Below are positions 6,638 to 62,800 of a stretch of DNA of 64,000 nucleotides, in pieces. How positions within the stretch are numbered: the stretch's first letter is position 1; every line of letters starts with the position of its first letter. Origin of the DNA: Candidatus Magasanikbacteria bacterium RIFCSPHIGHO2_01_FULL_33_34 (GTDB lineage: Bacteria; Patescibacteriota; Patescibacteriia; Magasanikbacterales; UBA922); NCBI GenBank assembly GCA_001782825.1, contig MFPS01000007.1, positions 84,487 to 148,486 of the forward strand, written 5' to 3'. The notes beneath the pieces are model-generated. The model did no database searches. It saw only the letters and a list, made by a program, of their open reading frames with translations, and was not told the DNA's origin. A program made the translations under genes and the position numbers.

Positions 6638-7429
6638 TTACCTAACTTCAATCCCATTTTGTTTCATAAAATTTTTGGCATGCATAGTTGAATGTTCTGT
6701 AAAGTGAAACTTATTTCCAACCGACACAGCCGAAGCTCCACCCTCTTTTATTCCCTCTACCAAATGTTTCCAATCTCCGACACCACCTGAGGCAATTACT
6801 GGGATATCTACTGCACTTGCTACTGTTTTTACAAGTGCAATATCATAACCCCGCATAGAACCATCTTCATCTATAGAAGTCAAAAATATTTCACCTGCCC
6901 CCAATTCTTCAACTTTTTTAGCCCAACCAACTACATCCATACCTGTATCAATTTTACCAAAACCTTTCATAACTTTATGTGTCCCATCTGTTTGTCTTTT
7001 TGCATCTATGGAAATGACTATACACTGACTACCAAAAACTTTTGCGCCCTCTGTTATAATTTCTGGTGTTTCAATTGCAACTGTATTTATTGTTATCTTG
7101 TCAGCTCCCATTTTTATATATCGCCTAATATCTTCCACACTTCTAATACCACCACCAGCGCACAAAGGAACGAAAGACTTCTTTGACACATATTTTATCA
7201 ACTGGTCAAAATCAGTCAATGTATTATCATAATTTACATCTGGCCTAAAAAAATCATAATTTTTCTCTCTGTTTATATCCAACAAAATTATTTCATCAAT
7301 TGCCCAAGCATTGAAATGCTCTACTGCCATAATAGCATTTCCCACCACCAAAAATTCAGAAAAATGCTTGCTCTGCACAATTTGACCATCTTTTATTATA
7401 AGACAAGCTATTAATCTTTTTTTCAACAT
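6638..7429 (-). CDS. Imidazole glycerol phosphate synthase cyclase-subunit homologue (HisF-like, WbuZ-type) of the amidotransferase triad
   Basis: MLKKRLIACLIIKDGQIVQS...ILLDINRE...GGGIRS...SGGVG are (beta/alpha)8 HisF motifs. The track start at 7450 is probably an N-terminal extension; Met8 chosen. Confidence 0.7.
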   Translation of the reverse strand: MLKKRLIACLIIKDGQIVQSKHFSEFLVVGNAIMAVEHFNAWAIDEIILLDINREKNYDFFRPDVNYDNTLTDFDQLIKYVSKKSFVPLCAGGGIRSVEDIRRYIKMGADKITINTVAIETPEIITEGAKVFGSQCIVISIDAKRQTDGTHKVMKGFGKIDTGMDVVGWAKKVEELGAGEIFLTSIDEDGSMRGYDIALVKTVASAVDIPVIASGGVGDWKHLVEGIKEGGASAVSVGNKFHFTEHSTMHAKNFMKQNGIEVR

Positions 7430-7436
7430 ATTAACC

Positions 7437-8048
7437 TCAATATTTAACAAATTTTCTCATCATTTCAATGCCATCTTTTTGACTTTTTTCTGGATGAAAT
7501 TGTGTTGCCATTATATTGCCACGCTCCAAACTACACACAAACTTACCACCATAATCTGTAACTCCAGTAATATCCTCTTTATTTTCACAATCAAAATGAA
7601 AACTATGCACAAAATAACAAATCTTTGGACTCATATCATTACCATACAACACACATTCTCTTTGTGGTTCAACATCATTCCAACCAATATGTGGAATACG
7701 ATATTCATCGCCTTCTGGAGTCAATTTTTTTACTTCACCTTTTATAAAACCTAGCCCATTATGCTCGCCTATTTCATAACTTTTATCTGCCAAAAGTTGC
7801 ATACCCAAACAAATTCCTAAAAATGGTTTTTTAACTTCCATTACTTCATTGGACAAAACTTCAACCAAACCAAGCTTTTTTAAATTTTCCATTGCCTCGC
7901 CAAATGCACCCACACCTGGCAGAATTAATTTGTCGGCTAATTCAATTTCTTTAGTTTTATTTGTAATTATGTTTTTCTCGCCAATATAATCCAGAATATT
8001 TGCTACTGATTGCAAATTTCCCATTCCATAATCAATAATTGCTATCAT
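7437..8048 (-). CDS. Class I glutamine amidotransferase, HisH-like (WbuY-type)
   Basis: MIAIIDYGMGNLQSV...GICLGMQLL...QFHPEKS (catalytic Cys-His-Glu triad context). 203 aa. Confidence 0.75.
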   Translation of the reverse strand: MIAIIDYGMGNLQSVANILDYIGEKNIITNKTKEIELADKLILPGVGAFGEAMENLKKLGLVEVLSNEVMEVKKPFLGICLGMQLLADKSYEIGEHNGLGFIKGEVKKLTPEGDEYRIPHIGWNDVEPQRECVLYGNDMSPKICYFVHSFHFDCENKEDITGVTDYGGKFVCSLERGNIMATQFHPEKSQKDGIEMMRKFVKY

Positions 8049-10318: not shown

Positions 10319-11464
10319 CTACTTAATTTGTAAAACCTTTTTATATATTTTTATATACTCACCTGCTATTTTATTCCATCTATGATTTTCTGCATACTTT
10401 TTACCAGCCTCCCCCATTTGTTTAGCTAAATCTTGATCTTTTAATATTTTTATAATAGCCTCAGCGGTAGAATCAATATCATTTTCTGGTACAAGAATGC
10501 CAGTCTTACCATCTAAAATTGCATCTGGTACACCTCCTGAACGACTACCAACAACCGGTTTGCCAGTAGCACCAGCCTCCAAATAAACTATACCAAACCC
10601 CTCAAAAGCGCCATCTGCATTCCTTGGAGTATGACAATAAACATCACACATATGAAAATATGCCGGCAACTCTTCATCACTTACCCGTCCAGCAAATAAT
10701 ATAATCTTCTCCAGTTTTAATTCTTTGACCAAATCTTTCAAACTTTTTTCATCAGTTCCAGAGCCAACCAATACATAAATTGCATTTGGCACAACTTTGA
10801 TCACTTTTTGCATAGCTCTAATTACAATATCAAAACCTTTTCTACTTTTAAGCGCACCCACACCTATTACAATTTTTTTATCTACTCCATATTTTTCTCT
10901 CAATTCTTTTATATCAACTTCTTTTTCAAATCTAGCGTAATTAACACCGGCATGAACTACGTCTATCTTATTTTCACTTATATTATATCTTTGCTTAGCG
11001 ACATTCATTGTAAAATTACTAATTGCGTTTACATTGACAGCCTGCTTATAAGTTTTACTAAACAAAAAATTATCCGGAAAACTTTTAAAAGGTTTATAAA
11101 ATGTACCACACAAAGTAATAATGTATGGAATTTTTTTATGAGAATTTATCATAGCCGAAAAAGCATATGGAAAATCAAGCGCATGAATCAAATCTGTTTT
11201 TCCAACCAATGCTTTGTTATTGACATAATTCCATAATCTTTTTGGATTTCTAAAAGACCATGCAAACTCAGGTAAAGTAAAATGGACTTTATCTACAAAA
11301 CTGAAATTGTCTGTATATCCTTTATTTTTCTCAGATTTAGGTAAATACAAATCAAACTCTAATTCATCACGATAAAAATTAAAATATGAAGTACAAAGTT
11401 CTGAAGCAACTGCGCCCCATCCATTTTTTTTATCAGCTGACGAACTAAAAAAAGCAATCTTCAT
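10319..11464 (-). CDS. GT4 (GT-B fold) glycosyltransferase
   Basis: C-terminal EGFGIVYLEAGATGKPVVGSRSGGVPD is the characteristic GT4 nucleotide-sugar binding motif. 381 aa. Confidence 0.7.
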   Translation of the reverse strand: MKIAFFSSSADKKNGWGAVASELCTSYFNFYRDELEFDLYLPKSEKNKGYTDNFSFVDKVHFTLPEFAWSFRNPKRLWNYVNNKALVGKTDLIHALDFPYAFSAMINSHKKIPYIITLCGTFYKPFKSFPDNFLFSKTYKQAVNVNAISNFTMNVAKQRYNISENKIDVVHAGVNYARFEKEVDIKELREKYGVDKKIVIGVGALKSRKGFDIVIRAMQKVIKVVPNAIYVLVGSGTDEKSLKDLVKELKLEKIILFAGRVSDEELPAYFHMCDVYCHTPRNADGAFEGFGIVYLEAGATGKPVVGSRSGGVPDAILDGKTGILVPENDIDSTAEAIIKILKDQDLAKQMGEAGKKYAENHRWNKIAGEYIKIYKKVLQIK

Positions 11465-52759: not shown

Positions 52760-55700
52760 TTAGAGAGCAACTACAGTAGGTGTGGTTGAAGCTGAGCCTA
52801 AACCAGAAATCAAGAATCCATTTGTCCAGTCATTTGTAGTCGTAGCATGTGCGCTAAGATGTCTATCTGACCAGATAAAGTCATCATGTGTTTCACCGTC
52901 AACATTAGTTGCTTTTTCCATCAACAATGCAGGTGTACCACCTTCAGCAACAGAAGCGTCGCCACCCAATCTAGTGGAAACTGAAGCGCCTGATGCAGCA
53001 CCAGTTACAGTACCACGAAGAACATAAGTTCTAGGTGTACCTAGAGCAACTGTTCTAGCTTCACCACCTTGACCTGTACCACTTGAATCTGTATCAAATA
53101 GAGCTTCAAAGTATCCATTTGCATAAGCTGTTGTTGCAGAACTATACAATGACACTTCTGTCTCATCTGTTACATCTAATACTTCAACATTAGTTACAGT
53201 TGCAGTTGTAGTTGTCATATCAAATACAAATTTGTATAGATCAATATCGCTAGTATTAGCGGTTACTTTGAATTTATACAAATCAACTGAACCGTTAGAC
53301 AATGTTCCACCGACTGTAAGTTTTGTTACAGTTGGAACACCTCTATACATGTAGTTAGTATTTCCAGTTGGAGCAGTTGTACCAAGATACTCTACCGCAC
53401 CGCTTCCAGTTTGAGCACCTTTAGCAGTCATATCTCCAGCAGCAGTAATCTTGAAACCAAGTCTATGTCCGCCAACTGTTACATTTTGTGATGAACCAAT
53501 ATTACTCAAATTAGCTTTCAAGTACATTTTTTGTCCATCAACATCATCTTTGTTAACTACAAAGGCACCTGAGCTGAATTCTATTACTGGAGTAGTTGAA
53601 GTTGGAACAACTGAACCAACGACTACACCAGCTTCATTTTCAAGATACAACAAGTTGTAATCTAGGTAAGATGAAGATGCAGTGGCTGTAACGACTTGAG
53701 TGAATTTAACTCTCTCCATTTCTACATTTTCTGTAGTAGTAGCCAAGAAGTTAAATACAGCAAGAGTTGCGCCTTGAGTACCAGCAGCAAATAATTTTGC
53801 AGTTGGGTTTGAACTGTCAAGAGATGCTTGAACAACACCACCAGCAGTTCCCACTGTCATTGAATTTCCAGAAGCAGTATCAATTGATTCAGTTACAGTG
53901 TTGTTTGTACTAACACCAATAGCTGTTACAAAGTTTGATGTACTTACAGCCATATTGTGAGTTCCAGCTGTAGCGCCACCTGAGATGTCACCACGAACTT
54001 CTACTACCAATGATTTGCCTTTAGCAACTGTAAATTGGTCAGCACTGGAAAGATTGAAGGTATAATCTTCAGATCCACCGGTTGTACCTGTACCAGCGTT
54101 TACAACTGATAATTGTTCAAGTGTACCACTACTATTGAATGAATCACCATCTTTGTCTACCCATAGAGTAACATTTTGAATGTGATTAGTTGCAACATTA
54201 GCTGCATGTCTAACTTTGAACTGAGTAACTTTCAACGCTTCAGAAGATCCGGTAGCATCTAATTGTACTTTAGCAAAGGTTATACCACTTGTTCCAGGAG
54301 CAAATGTTTGTGCTGCAGGAGTAGATAATGTGGTTATACGCAATGCTGCTGTAGTAATAGTTCTTGCATTAGCTGCCACAGTACCTGAACCTGGATATAC
54401 TTCCTGTGTACTACCAGAAAGTTCATAGTCATCCCCACTATCAACACCTTTAGCAACAAAATTGTCAGCTTTTTGGTCAATAGCTACAGTAATAATATCA
54501 CCATTTGCTGGTGTTGAATCAATATTACCTTTCAAAGTAAGAATATTGTCTCCGACTGGAAGAGTCATTGTGTCAGTTGAAGTAGCATATCCTGGACTGG
54601 CAGCGCCAACTCCATCTACTCCACTTATCAATGCTTTGCCAGCTGAATCATACAATGTCAAAGCATCAAAAGCGGTTGGTACTGCTGTACCGGTACCGGT
54701 AACAGTAAGCTTGAACACTATAGTTGAAACATCAACTGCTTCACCAGTAACTCTGAAATTCCATGAACCAAGTTCTACACCATTGGCCGCTTCTGGCACA
54801 TTACCAGCTGGGACATTGTTTACTTTTGTAATATTCAATGTTCCAGGACCAACCTGAACAATGTTTGACATATCTGAAGCACTGTTTGTAGGCAATCTGT
54901 AAACATTGGTATTTAGTTCTCTAACAAGAACATGTGATGCTCTTTTAACATCCAAGTCCATGTTACGGGTTGTACCGTTAAGTACATCACCATAAACTCC
55001 ATACTGTTTGTTATTACCTTTTACTATTTTACAATCATCACCACAGCTTGTCAGATCAAAGCTAACGTATTTTCCATCCCATACACCATCAGCAATTTTA
55101 TTGCTATTGTATGTAAGGTGAATATTAGCAAAATCAGAAGCTGAAGCTGTACCTCTGTTATAAAGAGTAATTCTCTCTACTCTTCCATCTTGAGTAGCAG
55201 TAGAGATTTGTAAGTTAGCAAGATTTACTCCTGTTTCACCGACTCTCTTTGTTACTGTTCCAACTGAAGCGCCCTGAGTTACAGTGGAAGTTCCCAAAGT
55301 AATACTAGCATTCAAGCTAACTGGATTTCCATGTAATGGAAGAGAACCGACTACTGTTGAGGCTGTCTCAACTGAGTAAACCGCCAATGTTGGCACGTTA
55401 CCACCTGTTACAGTACCCATATCGCCAACAAGAGTATATGTTTTTGTTACTCCTGATGGGATTGTTAGATCTTCAGAAAAAGATACTAAGTGATCAGAGT
55501 TAAGTGTTTTACCAGCTTCATTCAATAAATTTCCATCTGGTTTAACAACATTAATTGTACTAAAATCACCATCAACTCCTACTCCACCACGAAGCACTTT
55601 CAATGTTTTGATTACTACATCACCGCCTGTGGCTGTGAAGTTAACCTTTGTGAAAGCTAAACGTGATTGATTGGAATAACCATAAGTTCCAGATGGAGTG

Positions 55701-56515
55701 TCAGAAGCCAAAGCTACTGTCAAAGTTCCAACTGTTCCAGTACCTGTTCCTGTTCCTGTTCCAGTACCAGTTCCTGTTCCAACTCCGCCTGCTCCTTGTG
55801 TAGGATCAGCGTAAAGACTAGCAGATGTTACACTACCAGAACCTTCAGATACAGAATCTAATACAGCTTGTGATACAACTTGTACGTCAGCCATATTGCG
55901 AACAGAACCGTCAACCATATAACGCATACCATCCATTACCTTATAAGTAGTACCGCCAGCAACTTTTACTAGCATACCATTATGAGGTACGGCTTCTGTA
56001 AGCTCAGCACCAGAAGTTGAGTAGTTTGGCCAGAAAACATCAGCGATGTCTACTACCTTACTAGCCCAGTTACTTCCATATAGAGCTGAAGCTACAGCTT
56101 CGCTACCAACTTTGGCAAGAACATTGCCAGGTTGAACAGCGTATACACTTGGTGAGATTTGAACCTTAACTAACATTGAGCCAGGTCTGTAGTTAACACC
56201 AAATGGGGCACTTGATGGTGCAGGGTATGCATCCACACAAGTGGTTGGGATTTCAACAACCCCAGAAAAATCACTGAACCATGTTTTGTACACAGTTGAG
56301 TGTGGGAAATACAAACGTTCCATGTTGCCATTTAGCAAGTACACTGCACTATTACCAGGCACCTTGAAAAGGTCTCCAGCTTCTAGTGTAGGACAAGCTG
56401 CTTGTGCATTTGCAACCACTGGTACAAGAGCAGCAACGCCCATGCTCCAAAGGATTGTAAGCACAACTACTGACCATGTAAATGTTTTCTTTCCTAATCT
56501 TATTACATTCGTCAT
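52760..56515 (-). CDS. Giant secreted cell-surface protein (1251 aa), Thr/Gly/Val/Ser-rich, with a (GT)n run and N-terminal ~45-aa repeats; putative S-layer or adhesin-like glycoprotein
   Basis: Signal peptide MTNVIRLGKKTFTWSVVVLTILWSMGVAALVPVVANAQA; GVGTGTGTGTGTGTGTGTVG; about 18% Thr; three N-terminal repeats of the type also found in the 44477 protein. Confidence 0.55.
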   Translation of the reverse strand: MTNVIRLGKKTFTWSVVVLTILWSMGVAALVPVVANAQAACPTLEAGDLFKVPGNSAVYLLNGNMERLYFPHSTVYKTWFSDFSGVVEIPTTCVDAYPAPSSAPFGVNYRPGSMLVKVQISPSVYAVQPGNVLAKVGSEAVASALYGSNWASKVVDIADVFWPNYSTSGAELTEAVPHNGMLVKVAGGTTYKVMDGMRYMVDGSVRNMADVQVVSQAVLDSVSEGSGSVTSASLYADPTQGAGGVGTGTGTGTGTGTGTGTVGTLTVALASDTPSGTYGYSNQSRLAFTKVNFTATGGDVVIKTLKVLRGGVGVDGDFSTINVVKPDGNLLNEAGKTLNSDHLVSFSEDLTIPSGVTKTYTLVGDMGTVTGGNVPTLAVYSVETASTVVGSLPLHGNPVSLNASITLGTSTVTQGASVGTVTKRVGETGVNLANLQISTATQDGRVERITLYNRGTASASDFANIHLTYNSNKIADGVWDGKYVSFDLTSCGDDCKIVKGNNKQYGVYGDVLNGTTRNMDLDVKRASHVLVRELNTNVYRLPTNSASDMSNIVQVGPGTLNITKVNNVPAGNVPEAANGVELGSWNFRVTGEAVDVSTIVFKLTVTGTGTAVPTAFDALTLYDSAGKALISGVDGVGAASPGYATSTDTMTLPVGDNILTLKGNIDSTPANGDIITVAIDQKADNFVAKGVDSGDDYELSGSTQEVYPGSGTVAANARTITTAALRITTLSTPAAQTFAPGTSGITFAKVQLDATGSSEALKVTQFKVRHAANVATNHIQNVTLWVDKDGDSFNSSGTLEQLSVVNAGTGTTGGSEDYTFNLSSADQFTVAKGKSLVVEVRGDISGGATAGTHNMAVSTSNFVTAIGVSTNNTVTESIDTASGNSMTVGTAGGVVQASLDSSNPTAKLFAAGTQGATLAVFNFLATTTENVEMERVKFTQVVTATASSSYLDYNLLYLENEAGVVVGSVVPTSTTPVIEFSSGAFVVNKDDVDGQKMYLKANLSNIGSSQNVTVGGHRLGFKITAAGDMTAKGAQTGSGAVEYLGTTAPTGNTNYMYRGVPTVTKLTVGGTLSNGSVDLYKFKVTANTSDIDLYKFVFDMTTTTATVTNVEVLDVTDETEVSLYSSATTAYANGYFEALFDTDSSGTGQGGEARTVALGTPRTYVLRGTVTGAASGASVSTRLGGDASVAEGGTPALLMEKATNVDGETHDDFIWSDRHLSAHATTTNDWTNGFLISGLGSASTTPTVVAL

Positions 56516-59307: not shown

Positions 59308-59353
59308 TTTATTAATATTTTGTATAGACTAGTCTATACAAAATATTAATAAA
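59308..59353. promoter_or_regulatory. Perfect 46-bp palindrome (TTATTAATATTTTGTATAGACT|AGTCTATACAAAATATTAATAA), candidate operator upstream of the HTH gene
   Basis: Verified base by base. The related half-site palindrome ATTTGTATAGACTATTGTATACAAAT lies at 59244-59269. Confidence 0.6.
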
Positions 59354-59460
59354 AACACCTAAATAACCAAAAAATCTACAAACAAGTATTGACAAAAACC
59401 TCATTATATGCTATAATTGTATATACTATTCTGTACAAAAAGTATAAATATTACTAAATT

Positions 59461-59799
59461 ATGACAGATTTGCCTACAATTGATCAATCCAAAGAAATAG
59501 TAAGAGTGTCAATTTCTGAAGCTGCTCGTTTATTTGGAGTGAATGCCCAGACTATACGTAGGGCAATCCAATCTGGCGAGATTACTTATGTGGTGGTAGC
59601 TGGTAGATACAAGCTAAACTTTGAAAGCCTTGTCAGATGGTCTCAAACCAAAACTACAGTTAAAAACAAATCAGAAAAGTTTGGTATCGGGCAATATGTG
59701 GATAAATGGAAGATAAAGAACACACTCTACTCCCCTAGCACCAAGAGCATAAAAACATCTAAACATAAAAACATAAAAACATCAGAACCGTCAGCCTAA
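59461..59799 (+). CDS. Helix-turn-helix DNA-binding protein of the excisionase/MerR-like 'excise' family
   Basis: VSISEAARLFGVNAQTIRRAIQSGEITYVVVAGRYKLNFESLVRW follows the excisionase-family DNA-binding pattern. 112 aa; Lys/Ser-rich C-terminal tail encoded by an (AAAACATA)x3 repeat. Confidence 0.5.
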   Translation: MTDLPTIDQSKEIVRVSISEAARLFGVNAQTIRRAIQSGEITYVVVAGRYKLNFESLVRWSQTKTTVKNKSEKFGIGQYVDKWKIKNTLYSPSTKSIKTSKHKNIKTSEPSA

Positions 59800-59815
59800 G
59801 GCTGATGGTTTTTGT
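59792..59815 (+). terminator. Intrinsic terminator (TCAGCC-TAA-GGCTGA followed by a T run) whose loop is the stop codon of the HTH gene
   Basis: Hairpin 59792-59806, then TGGTTTTTGTATT. Confidence 0.5.
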
Positions 59816-59953
59816 ATTAAAAGTTGCATCATTTTAGAAAATAAAAAAAGACGTCGCGAGGCTGGGAGCCAAGCGACGTCGTAGGGGATCTCTGAAGACC
59901 CCGTTAGGATCACCTTCGGTGAGGGTTACTCACCTTGGGTGAATCACACTGCG

Positions 59954-60943
59954 TCATGGGTAGACGCAAGTGTTTGTGCCCACGTCGCAGTATGGCGACG
60001 GTGGACACGAATCTCCACACGGCAAGGCCGTGTAAAGGGTGCAGTGCCAGTCTTCATAGCACTGCACGCAGGTGCCATCCAGGCACTTGCGTTTGTCCGA
60101 CGGACAGTCGGAGTGCCCACTGCACTCCGGTTCCGGCTTGTCGCAGGTGCACTCACCGGCGACGCAGGAGTAGCCGTCGTCGCAGACGACCAGTTCGTGC
60201 TGGCAACCTAGAGTTGCGTCGCACGAATCGGTCGTACAGCTGTCACCGTCGTCGCACCCACCCAATGGGGGGGCAACTTGGTCACACAAACATGTGTCCG
60301 GGTTTTGTGCCCAGACACCGTTGCACGCGTCCTCGTCATCACAGACGAGGGGCGCGCAGCTCGGCGGAGCGTCACACTCCGGAACACCGGCATCCGGTGT
60401 CCCAAGGGGACATGTCGGACACGTCGGTTCCGGAGTGCATCCACTGGAAGTCGAGCAAAACTCTCCTTCGTTGCAGATTGTGCTGTCGGGGACCTGGAAA
60501 CACCCAGTACCCTCGACACACACGCCGACGGTGCAGACGAACGGGTCGTTGCAAGCGGGCGGTTCGCCCGGACGACATTCGCCGTCCAGACAGCGCTCCG
60601 CGCCGTTGCAGAACAACCCGTCGTTGCAGTCCAGATCCATTTCACAGGTCTCCGGACAACCGACACACGTGGGCGGACCCACGCACTCGTTGCGACTCTC
60701 GTCGCAGGTCATGCCGTTTTGACACAGGTCACCGGTGTGGGCACATTCGCCCACTCCGATACAGTACTCCACGCCATTACAGAACAACCCGTCCTGCGGA
60801 CAATCGCAAGCGTTACCGCCTGCATCATCCGCCGAACCAGCGTCAAGGGTAGAATTGCCGTTTGGCAACTCCACCCCGAAGTGGTCACGGCCCTCACCGC
60901 AAGCGGCGAGAGCCAAGAAAGCAAGAATGAGGATTCTCATCAT
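59954..60943 (-). CDS. Cysteine-rich secreted lipoprotein (about 16% Cys) with repeated DGLFCNG.E.C / CDDGDSC-type modules
   Basis: Signal peptide plus lipobox (LALAAC-G); repeats DGLFCNGVEYC, DGLFCNGAERC, CDDEDACNG, CDDGDSCTTDSCD. 329 aa; high GC3. Confidence 0.5.
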   Translation of the reverse strand: MMRILILAFLALAACGEGRDHFGVELPNGNSTLDAGSADDAGGNACDCPQDGLFCNGVEYCIGVGECAHTGDLCQNGMTCDESRNECVGPPTCVGCPETCEMDLDCNDGLFCNGAERCLDGECRPGEPPACNDPFVCTVGVCVEGTGCFQVPDSTICNEGEFCSTSSGCTPEPTCPTCPLGTPDAGVPECDAPPSCAPLVCDDEDACNGVWAQNPDTCLCDQVAPPLGGCDDGDSCTTDSCDATLGCQHELVVCDDGYSCVAGECTCDKPEPECSGHSDCPSDKRKCLDGTCVQCYEDWHCTLYTALPCGDSCPPSPYCDVGTNTCVYP

Positions 60944-60964
60944 TTTCTTTTCTTTCTGCCACCC

Positions 60965-61423
60965 TTAGCGGGTGGCATAGCAGATGATACCGGTGACGAG
61001 AGCCGACGCGCCTGCTCCGGCCGCCGCGAACTTCCACGTGGCGTCGAACCAGACGTCGACGCGAGAGGCCGAAACCTCCACGTCGTTGGGGTAGCGGATG
61101 CTGCCGTAGGCAGCACCTCCTGCTGTTCCGGCGAGACCGCCGAGAGCCATTGCTCCCAGACAGCCCCGCTTCTGCGCAGGTACCTTGACCGTGGTCGTGT
61201 CCGTGATGGGCACGACCAATTCGACGTCACAGTCCCCGTCAGACGGGCACTGCACCTGGCGGTCAAAGACCGCTTCGCCGTTGGCGGTCACTCCGTCGCT
61301 GGTGTCAAGCATCGTGCTCGAGACCACCGGCCTGGCGGTGTGCACCGCACAACCGCTGAGGATGTTGACCACAAGGGCCAACGCGAGGCCGAAAACGGCC
61401 AGAAACAAAAGATCCTTCTTCAT
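60965..61423 (-). CDS. Small lipoprotein (Gly/Ala-rich C-terminus)
   Basis: MKKDLLFLAVFGLALALVVNILSGC lipobox; SD AGGAGAGAG 5 nt upstream of ATG. 152 aa. Confidence 0.45.
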   Translation of the reverse strand: MKKDLLFLAVFGLALALVVNILSGCAVHTARPVVSSTMLDTSDGVTANGEAVFDRQVQCPSDGDCDVELVVPITDTTTVKVPAQKRGCLGAMALGGLAGTAGGAAYGSIRYPNDVEVSASRVDVWFDATWKFAAAGAGASALVTGIICYATR

Positions 61424-61547
61424 GTCTCTCTCCTGTTTCCCGACATCTTATCGGGATAGTTTCTGTTTGGTTGAAAGGTTGAAAAGAAAGGTCACCCTGC
61501 CTGGTGGTTAAACTGGGCAAAATGACCAGCGATGTGGCTGATGAAGA

Positions 61548-62513
61548 CTATCTCTCCACCGCCACGGTCTTGGTCCTGGGGACCACGACCCGCACGTTTA
61601 CGGGCTTGTCAGCCCGCTTGCGCAGATCGTCAACCCCGACCGAGAGGTTGCCATACTTCGCCTCCAGGCTCAGTAGATAACCCCTCGTCTCTTCGGACCG
61701 CTTTTTGTCGGCCTCTTCATGGCTCCGAAGCCGACGATCATGCTCATCGAGCTTCTTGTTGACCCTGTTGATGGCGCGACCGTTCTTCTCGCTCTGCACG
61801 AGGCCCTTTTCGGTCAAGCCGAACAGCATGTTCAGCATGCCGTTCTGTGGCTTGCTCAGGTGGCAACACTCACTCGGAGTCTTACCACTCTTGACACACT
61901 CATCAAGCAACTTCTCGTAGGCAAGAACCTCCGCCGGGTCAGTCACGACCCAGCCTTGGAACTTCTTCAGGAGACGGTAGGTCTCCGTATCGGTTCCACC
62001 GACCAAACGGCGAGTCTCCTCGCCGTCGATCCTCATCGTCGAGACGATGGGGCCGTCGACGCCAAGCAGAGCCCTGGTGACATCACCATCCTTGGTGACC
62101 GCCGAAGCGATCTTGTCGACGCTATCATCGTCATTGAACTGCTGATACAACAGCAGTCCAATGACGACAGCGATCCCCGCCAAGATGGCGACGAACCACC
62201 ACACCGAACGCTGAGGCGTCGGCGAAGGTGCCGGAGGGGGCAGAGTCTTGGCGACCCCGCCATTGATGTGTGGCGGAAGACCGCCACCACCACCGTGCTG
62301 TTCCATGCTCATATTCTGTTCTTTCTGGCGCTCACGACGCCTCTTCTGGTACTCCGTCTCCGTGACGCCGGGAAGCGCCGAATTGGGCTTGGTGTCCTGA
62401 TTGTCAGCGACGACCGAAGGGACACTCTCCTTTTCCGGGAGAACATCCTTTCCTCCATCTCGAGTTTGAATCTCCCCAGCCGCTTCGAGCTCACGTCGTT
62501 CATTTGCGGTCAT
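61548..62513 (-). CDS. Single-pass membrane protein with a Pro/Gly-rich cytoplasmic N-terminus and a charged C-terminal domain
   Basis: Start MTANERRELEAAGE preceded by SD AAGGAGAGG; TM VWWFVAILAGIAVVIGLLLY; GC3-rich codons on the minus strand. Confidence 0.45.
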   Translation of the reverse strand: MTANERRELEAAGEIQTRDGGKDVLPEKESVPSVVADNQDTKPNSALPGVTETEYQKRRRERQKEQNMSMEQHGGGGGLPPHINGGVAKTLPPPAPSPTPQRSVWWFVAILAGIAVVIGLLLYQQFNDDDSVDKIASAVTKDGDVTRALLGVDGPIVSTMRIDGEETRRLVGGTDTETYRLLKKFQGWVVTDPAEVLAYEKLLDECVKSGKTPSECCHLSKPQNGMLNMLFGLTEKGLVQSEKNGRAINRVNKKLDEHDRRLRSHEEADKKRSEETRGYLLSLEAKYGNLSVGVDDLRKRADKPVNVRVVVPRTKTVAVER

Positions 62514-62800
62514 AACAATCCTCTCCTTTTGAAACCTATGTAGGGACCAGCACCATGCTGGAACTGGCCCCAAGTGGGACCAAAAATCCCACACAGGCAC
62601 AAAAACACAACCAATGCTCTAATGCCTATGTAGAATTTCCCTACGCTATATTCAATTGTAAGGAACAGAATAATATAGCACATTTTTACACTTTTGTCAA
62701 GTTTTTGTAGTGATTAAAAAAACAAAAAACTCTAACTAATTTCTATATTTGTTACATATCAAAAAAACCGCTTAATTAAGGCAGTTTTTTTGATGTTATT

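Follow-up and report, generated by a model that had tools for sequence, protein, structure and literature searches.

A GC-rich operon in AT-rich Candidatus Magasanikbacteria genomes, probably a resident and recombination-shuffled surface-protein locus

A compact block of high GC content, about 2.8 kb in length, interrupts the AT-rich DNA of Candidatus Magasanikbacteria bacterium RIFCSPHIGHO2_01_FULL_33_34 at positions 59850-62600 of the stretch analyzed here (64,000 nucleotides of contig MFPS01000007.1, assembly GCA_001782825.1; hereafter the window, to whose coordinates all positions refer unless a contig is named). Three open reading frames (ORFs) occupy this island, all of them envelope genes on the minus strand, which we call C, B and A in the order of transcription. 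Our favored explanation, to which we assign a probability of roughly 65%, is that the island represents a resident surface-protein operon of a genus-level Candidatus Magasanikbacteria clade, which is shuffled by recombination and maintained at high GC. The locus is syntenic in related species, its alleles are replaced between near-identical strains and form mosaics across species, its synonymous sites are saturated with the GC retained, and donors are absent from the databases searched. An earlier note, made from the letters of the window, had interpreted the block as an insertion from a high-GC donor, an interpretation that is partly supported by the present analysis.

The GC content of the island is 0.594, compared with 0.312 for the remainder of the window. 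In 200-nt windows, it rises from 0.36-0.40 at 59600-59899 to 0.575-0.68 at 59900-62400 and drops to 0.27 at 62600, and no 1-kb bin of the 64 kb besides the island exceeds 0.40. The earlier note had described an island of 60-65% GC in a 29% GC genome with abrupt changes at both edges; the island and its sharp edges were recovered, and the percentages have to be replaced by the values measured here. At the three codon positions (GC1, GC2 and GC3), the island genes reach 0.61, 0.49 and 0.71 versus 0.41, 0.32 and 0.22 in 47 native genes. The non-coding pieces of the island have a GC content of 0.43-0.58 versus 0.23 in background spacers, and amino-acid usage is shifted up in Gly, Ala, Arg and Pro and down in Lys, Ile, Phe and Tyr. 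The proposal of a deviant compositional and translational background is borne out by GC3 and by the Shine-Dalgarno (SD) sites described below, and the three predicted minus-strand envelope genes were all found again (a lipobox in A, a lipobox in B and a hydrophobic helix in C). The GC-rich stretch is thus a genuine feature. Its GC skew ranges from -0.24 to +0.18 in 200-nt windows and is about -0.07 to -0.09 in 1-kb bins, i.e. close to zero. Almost all genes of the window lie on the minus strand, and over most of its length the plus-strand skew is strongly negative (-0.2 to -0.47).

Replacement of alleles was observed between two near-identical strains of one related species, for which about 6.5 kb were compared. 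Strain X is represented by contig L095, and strain Y was merged from the contigs L100, L101, L098 and L104, whose overlaps are 100% identical. Both strains are about 100% identical except for positions 1000-2330 of X, with a few 100-nt windows elsewhere at 97-99%. The variable block of 1.3 kb comprises gene C together with the predicted exposed half of gene B (codons 1-94) and shows 24-87% identity, many gaps and a part that is unalignable. It starts at the 3' end of a leader RNA in front of gene C and stops at codon 95 of gene B, where 100% identity returns in the conserved half of this gene; the homologous anchors of the variable cassette are the leader on its left and the 3' half of gene B on its right. 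Within the block, the DNA for the predicted cytoplasmic N-terminus of C is 86-87% identical and the ectodomains of C are unrelated, while the ectodomains of B share 33% identity and the B anchors 100%. The B ectodomain of strain Y shares 66% identity with its counterpart in another species (L007), and ectodomain types therefore cross species boundaries. Each allele is backed by at least four independent contigs, and both are present in metagenome Ga0208958. The pair shows features by which replacement islands are recognized, namely divergent content in near-identical strains, conserved borders and alleles that are incongruent with the species tree. In one further contig (L096, positions 1-214), the X-type promoter-leader-C-B module is located behind unrelated AT-rich sequence, with the break exactly at the -35 box, which may reflect a second copy, a strain with a rearrangement or an error of assembly. 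A diversity-generating retroelement target was considered and rejected: there is no island repeat in the window, no reverse transcriptase among the neighbors scanned, and the variation affects the whole block and is not limited to adenine positions.

Homologous islands are found at the same locus in related species. The window and L103 both have the genes C-B-A, L007 and the lineage of strain X (L095/L009/L011) have C-B-A2-A3, and the shared order consists of SmpB, DUF5663, a giant protein, the island, HTH_17, an extracytoplasmic function (ECF) sigma factor, DUF5667 and a protein of about 1250 amino acids (p1251). The related islands have a GC content of 0.55-0.70 with sharp edges within genomes of 0.31-0.45 GC, and across lineages the GC3 of the islands is 0.68-0.85 versus 0.18-0.46 in the flanks. 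At least four lineages have the island in this place, with the gene order preserved and island GC values of 0.59-0.63. Between species, flank proteins are 51-89% and island proteins 26-54% identical. These syntenic homologues in low-GC relatives (L007, L095/L009/L011 and L103) contradict the recent acquisition proposed in the earlier note. For gene B, a search of 5.8e9 proteins detected six other clusters with 51-60% identity, which, wherever neighboring genes are available, belong to syntenic loci of the candidate phyla radiation (CPR). Gene C matched only itself among these 5.8e9 proteins and two further clusters among 1.84e9 representatives in an exhaustive phmmer search; where the contig of a C match reaches past the gene, it falls within this clade. 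The contexts of the B and C homologues were taken from contigs long enough to include neighbors, with P0075 and P0076 left out; P0077, on the 1.1-kb contig L094, comes with only the conserved promoter, the leader and gene C.

To relate composition to divergence, four-fold degenerate sites were compared between species, limited to codons with the same amino acid. Here, 48-72% of the sites differ in gene B and 48-68% in the flanking HTH_17 and sigma genes, and both gene B and its flanks are therefore at or near saturation. The GC content at four-fold sites (GC4) of island and flank is 0.69 and 0.17 in the window, 0.77 and 0.20 in L007 and 0.83 and 0.44 in X, which corresponds to a logit shift of 1.8-2.6 between island and flank. 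Island GC4 rises with host GC4 (three points only), a suggestive trend that fits in-situ evolution under the mutation bias of the host together with a constant GC-ward bias. A fragment that decays towards host composition cannot produce this pattern. As the four-fold sites are saturated and yet GC-rich, the high GC is therefore a maintained equilibrium and not a relic: a sharp GC island is usually read as recent transfer, and in this case that inference is wrong.

The operon is preceded by a sigma-70-type promoter on the minus strand (62672..62700), which consists of TTGACA, a 17-nt spacer, TATATT and a TG-extended -10 element, is AT-rich with native-like composition and scores 11/12 in a consensus scan. 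No base of the -35 and -10 boxes differs between the window, L007, L094 and L095, and the boxes are conserved in L103 as well. Downstream follows a structured 5' leader RNA of about 115 nt (62533..62646, minus strand) with four helices, the closing stem P1, the long hairpin P2, P3 and P4, and its minimum free energy fold has a z-score of -5.5. Copies are located in L007 (8924-9044), L095 (901-1020), L094 (78-194) and L103 (330-446). A covariance model (R1), built from five copies with that of L103 kept out of training, recovered the untrained L103 leader at 64 bits and found no match in 78 other Magasanikbacteria loci. In an alignment of six sequences, few in number and fitted to the model, 13 of the 44 leader pairs show compensatory changes and 93.5% of the cells are able to pair, versus about 40% with the partners slid. 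The leader region (62514-62646) matched no Rfam 15 family even at E <= 10, and a metagenome scan for the leader core returned four real contigs and one chance match (L099, a high-GC genome). The leader, which is confined to the island-bearing clade, is a candidate for a new regulatory RNA. Promoter and leader are AT-rich or intermediate in GC and are conserved across lineages. At the other end, an intrinsic terminator on the minus strand (59838..59880; hairpin GACGUCGC...GCGACGUC followed by a U-run) closes the unit where the GC shift stops, and the fold of 59825-59955 on this strand has a z-score of -6.7. The GC-rich block therefore coincides with one transcription unit with a native-looking promoter.

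Translation signals set the island apart as well. The SD sites of gene C (AGGAGAGG, 62520..62527) and gene B (AGGAG, 61430..61434) are both on the minus strand; genes B and C carry AGGAG with spacings of 6 and 9 nt, and gene A is without an SD site. SD sites also precede the C homologues of L007, L094, L095 and L103. Among the native ORFs of at least 150 amino acids (window 1-59400), by contrast, a 4-nt SD core within 20 nt upstream occurs in none of 48, so that the difference in SD usage is even stronger than the earlier note had stated. Translation in this genome therefore appears to start without SD sites. A 16S rRNA 3' end was sought in all fetched loci as a check of the anti-SD sequence and found in none of these; in a published survey, the anti-SD motif is missing in about half of Parcubacteria (PMC9297842).

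Gene A (59954..60943, minus strand) encodes a cysteine-rich lipoprotein of 329 amino acids with the lipobox LAAC and modules of the types DGLFCNG.E.C and CDDG.SCT.D.C. Its cysteine content is 14.9% and not 16% as given earlier. The protein is the orthologue of A2 in the related species, with the common N-terminus C-E-x-RDH-x-GV, and matches the Pfam family Dicty_CTDC (PF00526) with 29.6 bits (cut-off 27) in one repeat at amino acids 230-249. None of A, A2 and A3 matched NCBIfam at E <= 0.01; the curated NCBIfam/TIGRFAM model of the myxobacterial Cys-rich repeat family, with which A had been compared, is among the models unmatched at this threshold. The nearest homologues of A outside the CPR, P0002 and P0003, share 33% identity and come from genomes of uniformly high GC (0.65-0.77 and 0.56-0.67 in 500-nt windows), so that the expected occurrence of this repeat type in high-GC bacteria was confirmed. 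Over the repeats (DGLFCNG.E.C / CTxDxCD), A is 33-43% identical to such Dicty_CTDC-type proteins of high-GC bacteria (P0002, P0003, P0007), but differs from them in being short and lipobox-anchored and in its clade-specific N-terminus, which is common to A2 of L007 and L095.

Gene B (60965..61423, minus strand) encodes 152 amino acids with the lipobox LSGC. The signal peptide, the lipobox (Cys25) and a variable ectodomain (amino acids 26-84) are encoded at 61172..61423, and the conserved C-terminal half at 60965..61171 contains KRGC, a Gly-zipper helix, the motif YPNDVEV..RVDVWFDATWK and a second hydrophobic helix. This half is predicted to be a two-helix membrane anchor; the AlphaFold2 (AF2) model places helices at 89-110 and 127-151, with a poor predicted local distance difference test (pLDDT) score of 57. 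Between most lineages, the ectodomain of B is 21-38% identical, and the anchor half 68-100%. Gene C (61548..62513, minus strand) encodes 321 amino acids counted from ATG, with one central hydrophobic helix. The protein is predicted to be bitopic, with a charged cytoplasmic N-terminal part, a transmembrane (TM) helix at about amino acids 104-125 and a helical or coiled-coil ectodomain, and its AF2 secondary structure is of low confidence (pLDDT 49). Lipoboxes, the TM helix and the variable ectodomains are the indicators of surface exposure that can be read from the sequence next to these low-confidence models. Genes B and C have no Pfam match, PDB sequence searches with A, B and C gave no match, and NCBIfam and PADLOC searches gave no significant match, the 'mad1' match of HTH_17 covering its helix-turn-helix domain only. 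The match of C to the anti-sigma factor model NF052375 was weak, with 18.7 bits against a cut-off of 100 (E 1.4e-3). In three metagenome-assembled genomes (MAGs) of the same strain (L107, L109 and L112; GCA_001782955.1, GCA_001782875.1 and GCA_001784315.1), a spurious plus-strand ORF of 384 amino acids (window 60278-61459) is annotated in place of A and B; high GC creates long false ORFs in all frames. Users of the GenBank MAG records should be aware that genes A and B are missing there.

The combination of cysteine-rich lipoproteins and high GC extends beyond this clade. Among 785 ORFs of at least 120 amino acids in 83 Magasanikbacteria loci, 19 are Cys-rich (at least 7% Cys), with a GC3 excess (dGC3) of +0.30 on average; the mean of the other 766 is +0.005 (standard deviation 0.08). 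In many distant Magasanikbacteria, HTH_17 is followed by a protein of about 615 amino acids and then by a Cys-rich lipoprotein of 520-911 amino acids with a GC3 of 0.61-0.85 versus 0.25-0.5 in its neighbors; within the set tested, the Cys-rich lipoproteins of Magasanikbacteria are each other's best matches. The gene for the protein of about 615 amino acids is absent from the clade of the window, and the island therefore sits at a synteny break. An SD core precedes 54% of the high-dGC3 ORFs versus 4% of the others (Fisher p = 6e-16; 83 loci); by a rough estimate about 15% would be expected by chance in 60% GC DNA, and the 4% of the normal ORFs is about the chance level. At exactly the site of the island, downstream of HTH_17, L031 carries a different gene of 124 amino acids with a GC3 of 0.79 (10418-10792). 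Isolated high-GC genes (GC3 0.8-0.9), most with lipoprotein-like N-termini, were also noted in L045 (15196-15804), L080 (13603-14202), L073 (13694-14128), L040 (9786-11210), L066 (1-3150) and L031.

No homologue of A, B or C with more than 33% identity was found outside the clade, blastn of the island against phages and plasmids gave no match, and neither did a scan of IMG/VR for B. As to the high-GC donor expected by the earlier note, the nearest outside homologues of A come from high-GC bacteria, at no more than 33% identity; for B and C, no outside homologue exists in the searched collections. Judged by these searches, B and C are orphans of the clade. Since the outside homologues of A are located in high-GC genomes, an ancient transfer of the Cys-rich gene into Magasanikbacteria is plausible.

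From these observations we derive the following model. A native AT-rich sigma-70 promoter and the structured leader RNA would drive the synthesis of three envelope proteins, with the intrinsic terminator ending the unit: C as a bitopic membrane protein, B as a lipoprotein with a variable ectodomain and a two-helix anchor, and A as a disulfide-rich repeat lipoprotein. The ectodomains of C and B would persist as very old and very divergent alleles, which are swapped between strains and across species via homologous recombination anchored in the leader and in the 3' half of gene B. The GC content of 60% would be a maintained equilibrium, in which synonymous sites have turned over to saturation while remaining GC-rich, and an ancient foreign Cys-rich gene may have been the starting point. 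A, B and C may form a surface complex under diversifying selection, exerted by host contact or by phage or predator recognition. The GC-ward force would be recombination-associated biased gene conversion, selection for GC or both. A conversion bias as the specific cause is favored here only weakly and should be taken as tentative. It is favored because GC correlates with recombination across bacteria: recombining genes have a higher GC content, independent of codon selection and in intergenic DNA too (Lassalle et al., 2015; PMC4450053). In contrast to the modest shifts across genomes described there, the shift of the island is extreme and confined to one operon.

As a bolder version of this model, which we regard as possible but short of probable, hypervariable surface lipoprotein genes could be written in a second 'genetic dialect', with high GC at all codon positions and SD initiation, held by a locus-specific GC-ward process inside SD-less genomes of 30-45% GC, and with the leader RNA doubling as recombination anchor. 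Candidates for such a process are a recombination hot spot with extreme biased gene conversion and a dedicated mechanism of mutation or repair. If true, GC heterogeneity driven by recombination or selection inside one bacterial genome would have its strongest natural example here, and the locus would give access to host or phage recognition among CPR bacteria. The locus bears on the open question of what counters AT-biased mutation in bacteria, biased gene conversion or selection, and offers a compact natural test case, with near-identical strains differing in a 1.3-kb cassette and three host backgrounds of different GC. For CPR biology, with its uncultured episymbionts, the small and fast-evolving predicted surface complex is an obvious candidate for a role in host attachment or phage recognition.

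Among known systems, the best comparison is with replacement flexible genomic islands, in which surface clusters for O-antigen, capsule or S-layer are exchanged by homologous recombination (Lopez-Perez et al., 2014; PMC4033161). Shared features are the fixed locus in relatives, alleles that diverge strongly or lack homology even though the strains are near-identical, conserved flanks as anchors, predicted exposed structures as products, an atypical composition and a position adjoining a glycan cluster. With its conserved leader at the 5' edge, the operon is reminiscent of O-antigen and capsule operons and their JUMPstart/ops leader. Unlike replacement islands, the present one is tiny (a 1.3-kb cassette in a 2.8-kb operon), encodes proteins and not glycan synthesis, and belongs to a CPR host; its GC content deviates upward by about 30 points instead of downward and is kept through saturating divergence, and the breakpoints are inside gene B and in the leader RNA. 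Literature searches gave no relevant prior description of GC-rich hypervariable loci in CPR; a paper on 'hypervariation' in Gracilibacteria was rejected as a precedent, as it concerns a different thing, a PTD-repeat gene. Replacement-type hypervariable surface loci are already known; unusual here is the maintained high-GC, SD-bearing state in a CPR lineage, which comes with a candidate new leader RNA and two orphan protein families.

Several observations weigh against the resident, recombination-shuffled operon as favored here. None of at least 20 contigs from the window's own population, all of one clone, contains an alternative cassette. A2 and A3 are identical in X and Y, and thus not recently exchanged, yet they are equally GC-rich. 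The GC3 shift of +0.5 far exceeds the differences between genes that are commonly attributed to biased gene conversion in bacteria, and the island spacers (0.43-0.58 GC) are below the four-fold sites (0.69), a difference not expected from a purely regional conversion bias as long as the spacers are free of constraint. It is because of the extreme shift, the lower spacers and the GC-rich A2 and A3 that conversion bias is held only weakly. The SD sites and the amino-acid make-up, rich in Gly, Ala, Arg and Pro and poor in Lys, Ile, Phe and Tyr, resemble foreign ancestry. In many species (e.g. L012, L014, L016 and L021), no such gene follows HTH_17, and this patchy distribution requires repeated loss or repeated transfer. 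Finally, the putative function is read from signal peptides, topology and variability only, next to poor structure models.

The first serious rival, unlikely in our judgment but ahead of the others, is a resident operon in which GC is kept by direct selection, acting on mRNA stability or structure, on translation controlled through SD sites and rare codons ending in G or C, or on a DNA property required for recombination, as has been proposed for the vls locus of Borrelia. It would account for a GC shift that begins past the promoter and ends at the terminator, just like the transcription unit, for four-fold sites that exceed the spacers of the island in GC, and for the co-occurrence of SD sites with high GC. 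Moreover, selection on GC, and with it an active maintenance of high GC linked to gene conversion, has been argued for vls by Norris and co-workers (PMC11499132). On the other hand, the non-coding parts of the island still have about twice the GC of the background, GC1, GC2 and amino-acid usage are shifted too, and the vls-like GC skew is lacking.

Somewhat less likely still, although to be taken seriously, is a recurrent import, by which the site downstream of HTH_17 repeatedly receives cassettes from an unsampled high-GC reservoir, for example the bacterial host of the episymbiont or a mobile element, so that islands are young and alleles old. The patchy distribution, the different high-GC gene at the same site in L031, the Cys-rich lipoproteins one gene further on elsewhere, the synteny break and the lineage-wide enrichment of SD sites on high-GC genes are all in line with this scenario, as is the promoter-leader-C-B module behind a different upstream sequence in L096. 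However, no reservoir sequence for B or C was detected among the 1.84e9 and 5.8e9 proteins despite deep sampling of metagenomes from the same aquifer, nor was any match found in IMG/VR, phages or plasmids. In addition, the conserved AT-rich promoter and leader travel with the island, the observed X/Y exchange took place between CPR genomes with CPR-internal anchors, and island GC4 tracks that of the host.

The remaining alternatives are poorly supported. In a vls-like intragenomic antigenic variation, an expression site would be rewritten from silent cassettes, and X and Y would be two states of one strain; we consider this very unlikely. Like the island, the vls locus encodes surface lipoproteins, is conserved across species and has a GC content of 49% in a genome of 28.6% (PMC11499132). 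The nearly 100% identical flanks of X and Y, the presence of both alleles in one metagenome and a possible second copy in L096 would fit as well. However, in vls the silent cassettes form a contiguous array, conversion is segmental and runs in one direction inside a single cell, and there are G-runs and a strong GC skew (0.52). In the window, blastn and tblastx detected no copy of any island segment elsewhere in the 64 kb, which argues against silent cassettes, and in the protein searches none of the three proteins had a paralogue within the same genomes. The island, with a skew of about zero, lacks the skew and G-run signature, and the replaced tract is one 1.3-kb block with unalignable sequence, exchanged as a whole between strains, and not a set of segmental patches.

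A recent and not yet ameliorated single insertion, in which a Proteobacteria- or Myxococcota-like donor with high GC and SD usage supplied the 2.8-kb fragment, is if anything even less probable. Sharp GC edges, SD sites confined within the window to island genes, the amino-acid and codon make-up of high-GC organisms and the nearest non-CPR homologues of A in genomes of 62-72% GC speak for it. Like a classical genomic island, the block has atypical GC, codon and SD usage, sharp borders and a patchy, accessory distribution. Unlike such islands, it is syntenic across species at saturated synonymous divergence, its promoter and leader are conserved and native-like, and it shows no amelioration and no donor, the three proteins having no homologue of more than 33% identity outside the clade. 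The window contains neither a tRNA gene nor an Rfam family, and, in line with the earlier note, no integrase was found among the 27 of about 50 large ORFs that were scanned against Pfam. The direct repeat GTAGGG(G)A(T)C, proposed at the borders as an att-like site, occurs at chance level (10 matches in the window versus 8.6 expected), and its right copy is one arm of the closing stem of the leader.

An assembly chimera joining a fragment of a high-GC organism to a CPR contig is practically negligible, in spite of one Rifle scaffold (L113, positions 7086-7520) that departs from the window at 60548 inside gene A and continues for its last 435 nt in unrelated 60% GC DNA. This scaffold end is truly chimeric, unlike the more than 20 contigs that are colinear and at least 99.9% identical over both borders (fetched copies: 99.9-100%). 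The exact B protein was found on at least 24 and the exact HTH_17 protein on at least 23 contigs from ENA, JGI, NCBI and Logan, which originate from different samples and assembly pipelines (MEGAHIT-style k141 contigs, scaffolds of other pipelines, JGI assemblies, NCBI MAGs and Logan unitigs), and every contig spanning the region has an identical gene order. The same architecture in other species points in the same direction. The earlier view of a real insertion rather than a chimera was therefore right in dismissing the chimera, and not upheld for a recent insertion.

The left border of the island is formed by the HTH_17 gene (59461..59799, plus strand; Pfam HTH_17, E 2.5e-7), which is convergent with the operon and lies outside the GC-rich unit. 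The protein is 82-89% identical among island-bearing species. A scan for it with one genome per species yielded 80 loci, nearly all labelled Candidatus Magasanikbacteria or Patescibacteria, and in 80 Magasanikbacteria species the gene adjoins the ECF-sigma/DUF5667 block. As a conserved core gene of at least 80 species, it is ruled out as an island-borne excisionase, and the mobility feature seen in it by the earlier note is not retained. HTH_17 is instead a candidate regulator of the operon. Its own promoter (59389-59415) and the island promoter (62674-62700) show a near-identical consensus in inverted orientation (27 nt at 74%), and a second inverted match of 14 nt is located directly downstream of both. 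A co-regulation of the operon and the HTH_17 gene by HTH_17 is possible.

In the wider neighborhood, DUF5663, DUF5667, SmpB and IF3 support a Magasanikbacteria/Patescibacteria host. A glycan and envelope cluster of about 25 kb (26872-52614) contains at least six GT4 glycosyltransferases, three genes of the GDP-mannose-dehydratase/epimerase type, DegT and an asparagine synthase (AsnB) as well as a methyltransferase, a CotH kinase-like protein, PMT_2, DUF2079 and Wzy_C. It is followed at 52760-56515 by the gene of a conserved protein of 1251 amino acids without a Pfam domain, which has a GC content of 0.40 yet a GC3 of 0.21; in one strain (L113), an insertion of about 243 nt extends the protein to 1332 amino acids. 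Between the ECF sigma gene and the HTH_17 promoter lies a perfect palindrome of 46 bp (59308-59353) with 23-nt arms and no spacer. The HTH_17 gene contains, at its 3' end, four tandem copies of an 8-nt unit (AAAAACAT-like; 59743-59788), which encode KHKNIKT-type repeats, and the C-terminal tail of HTH_17 differs between species.

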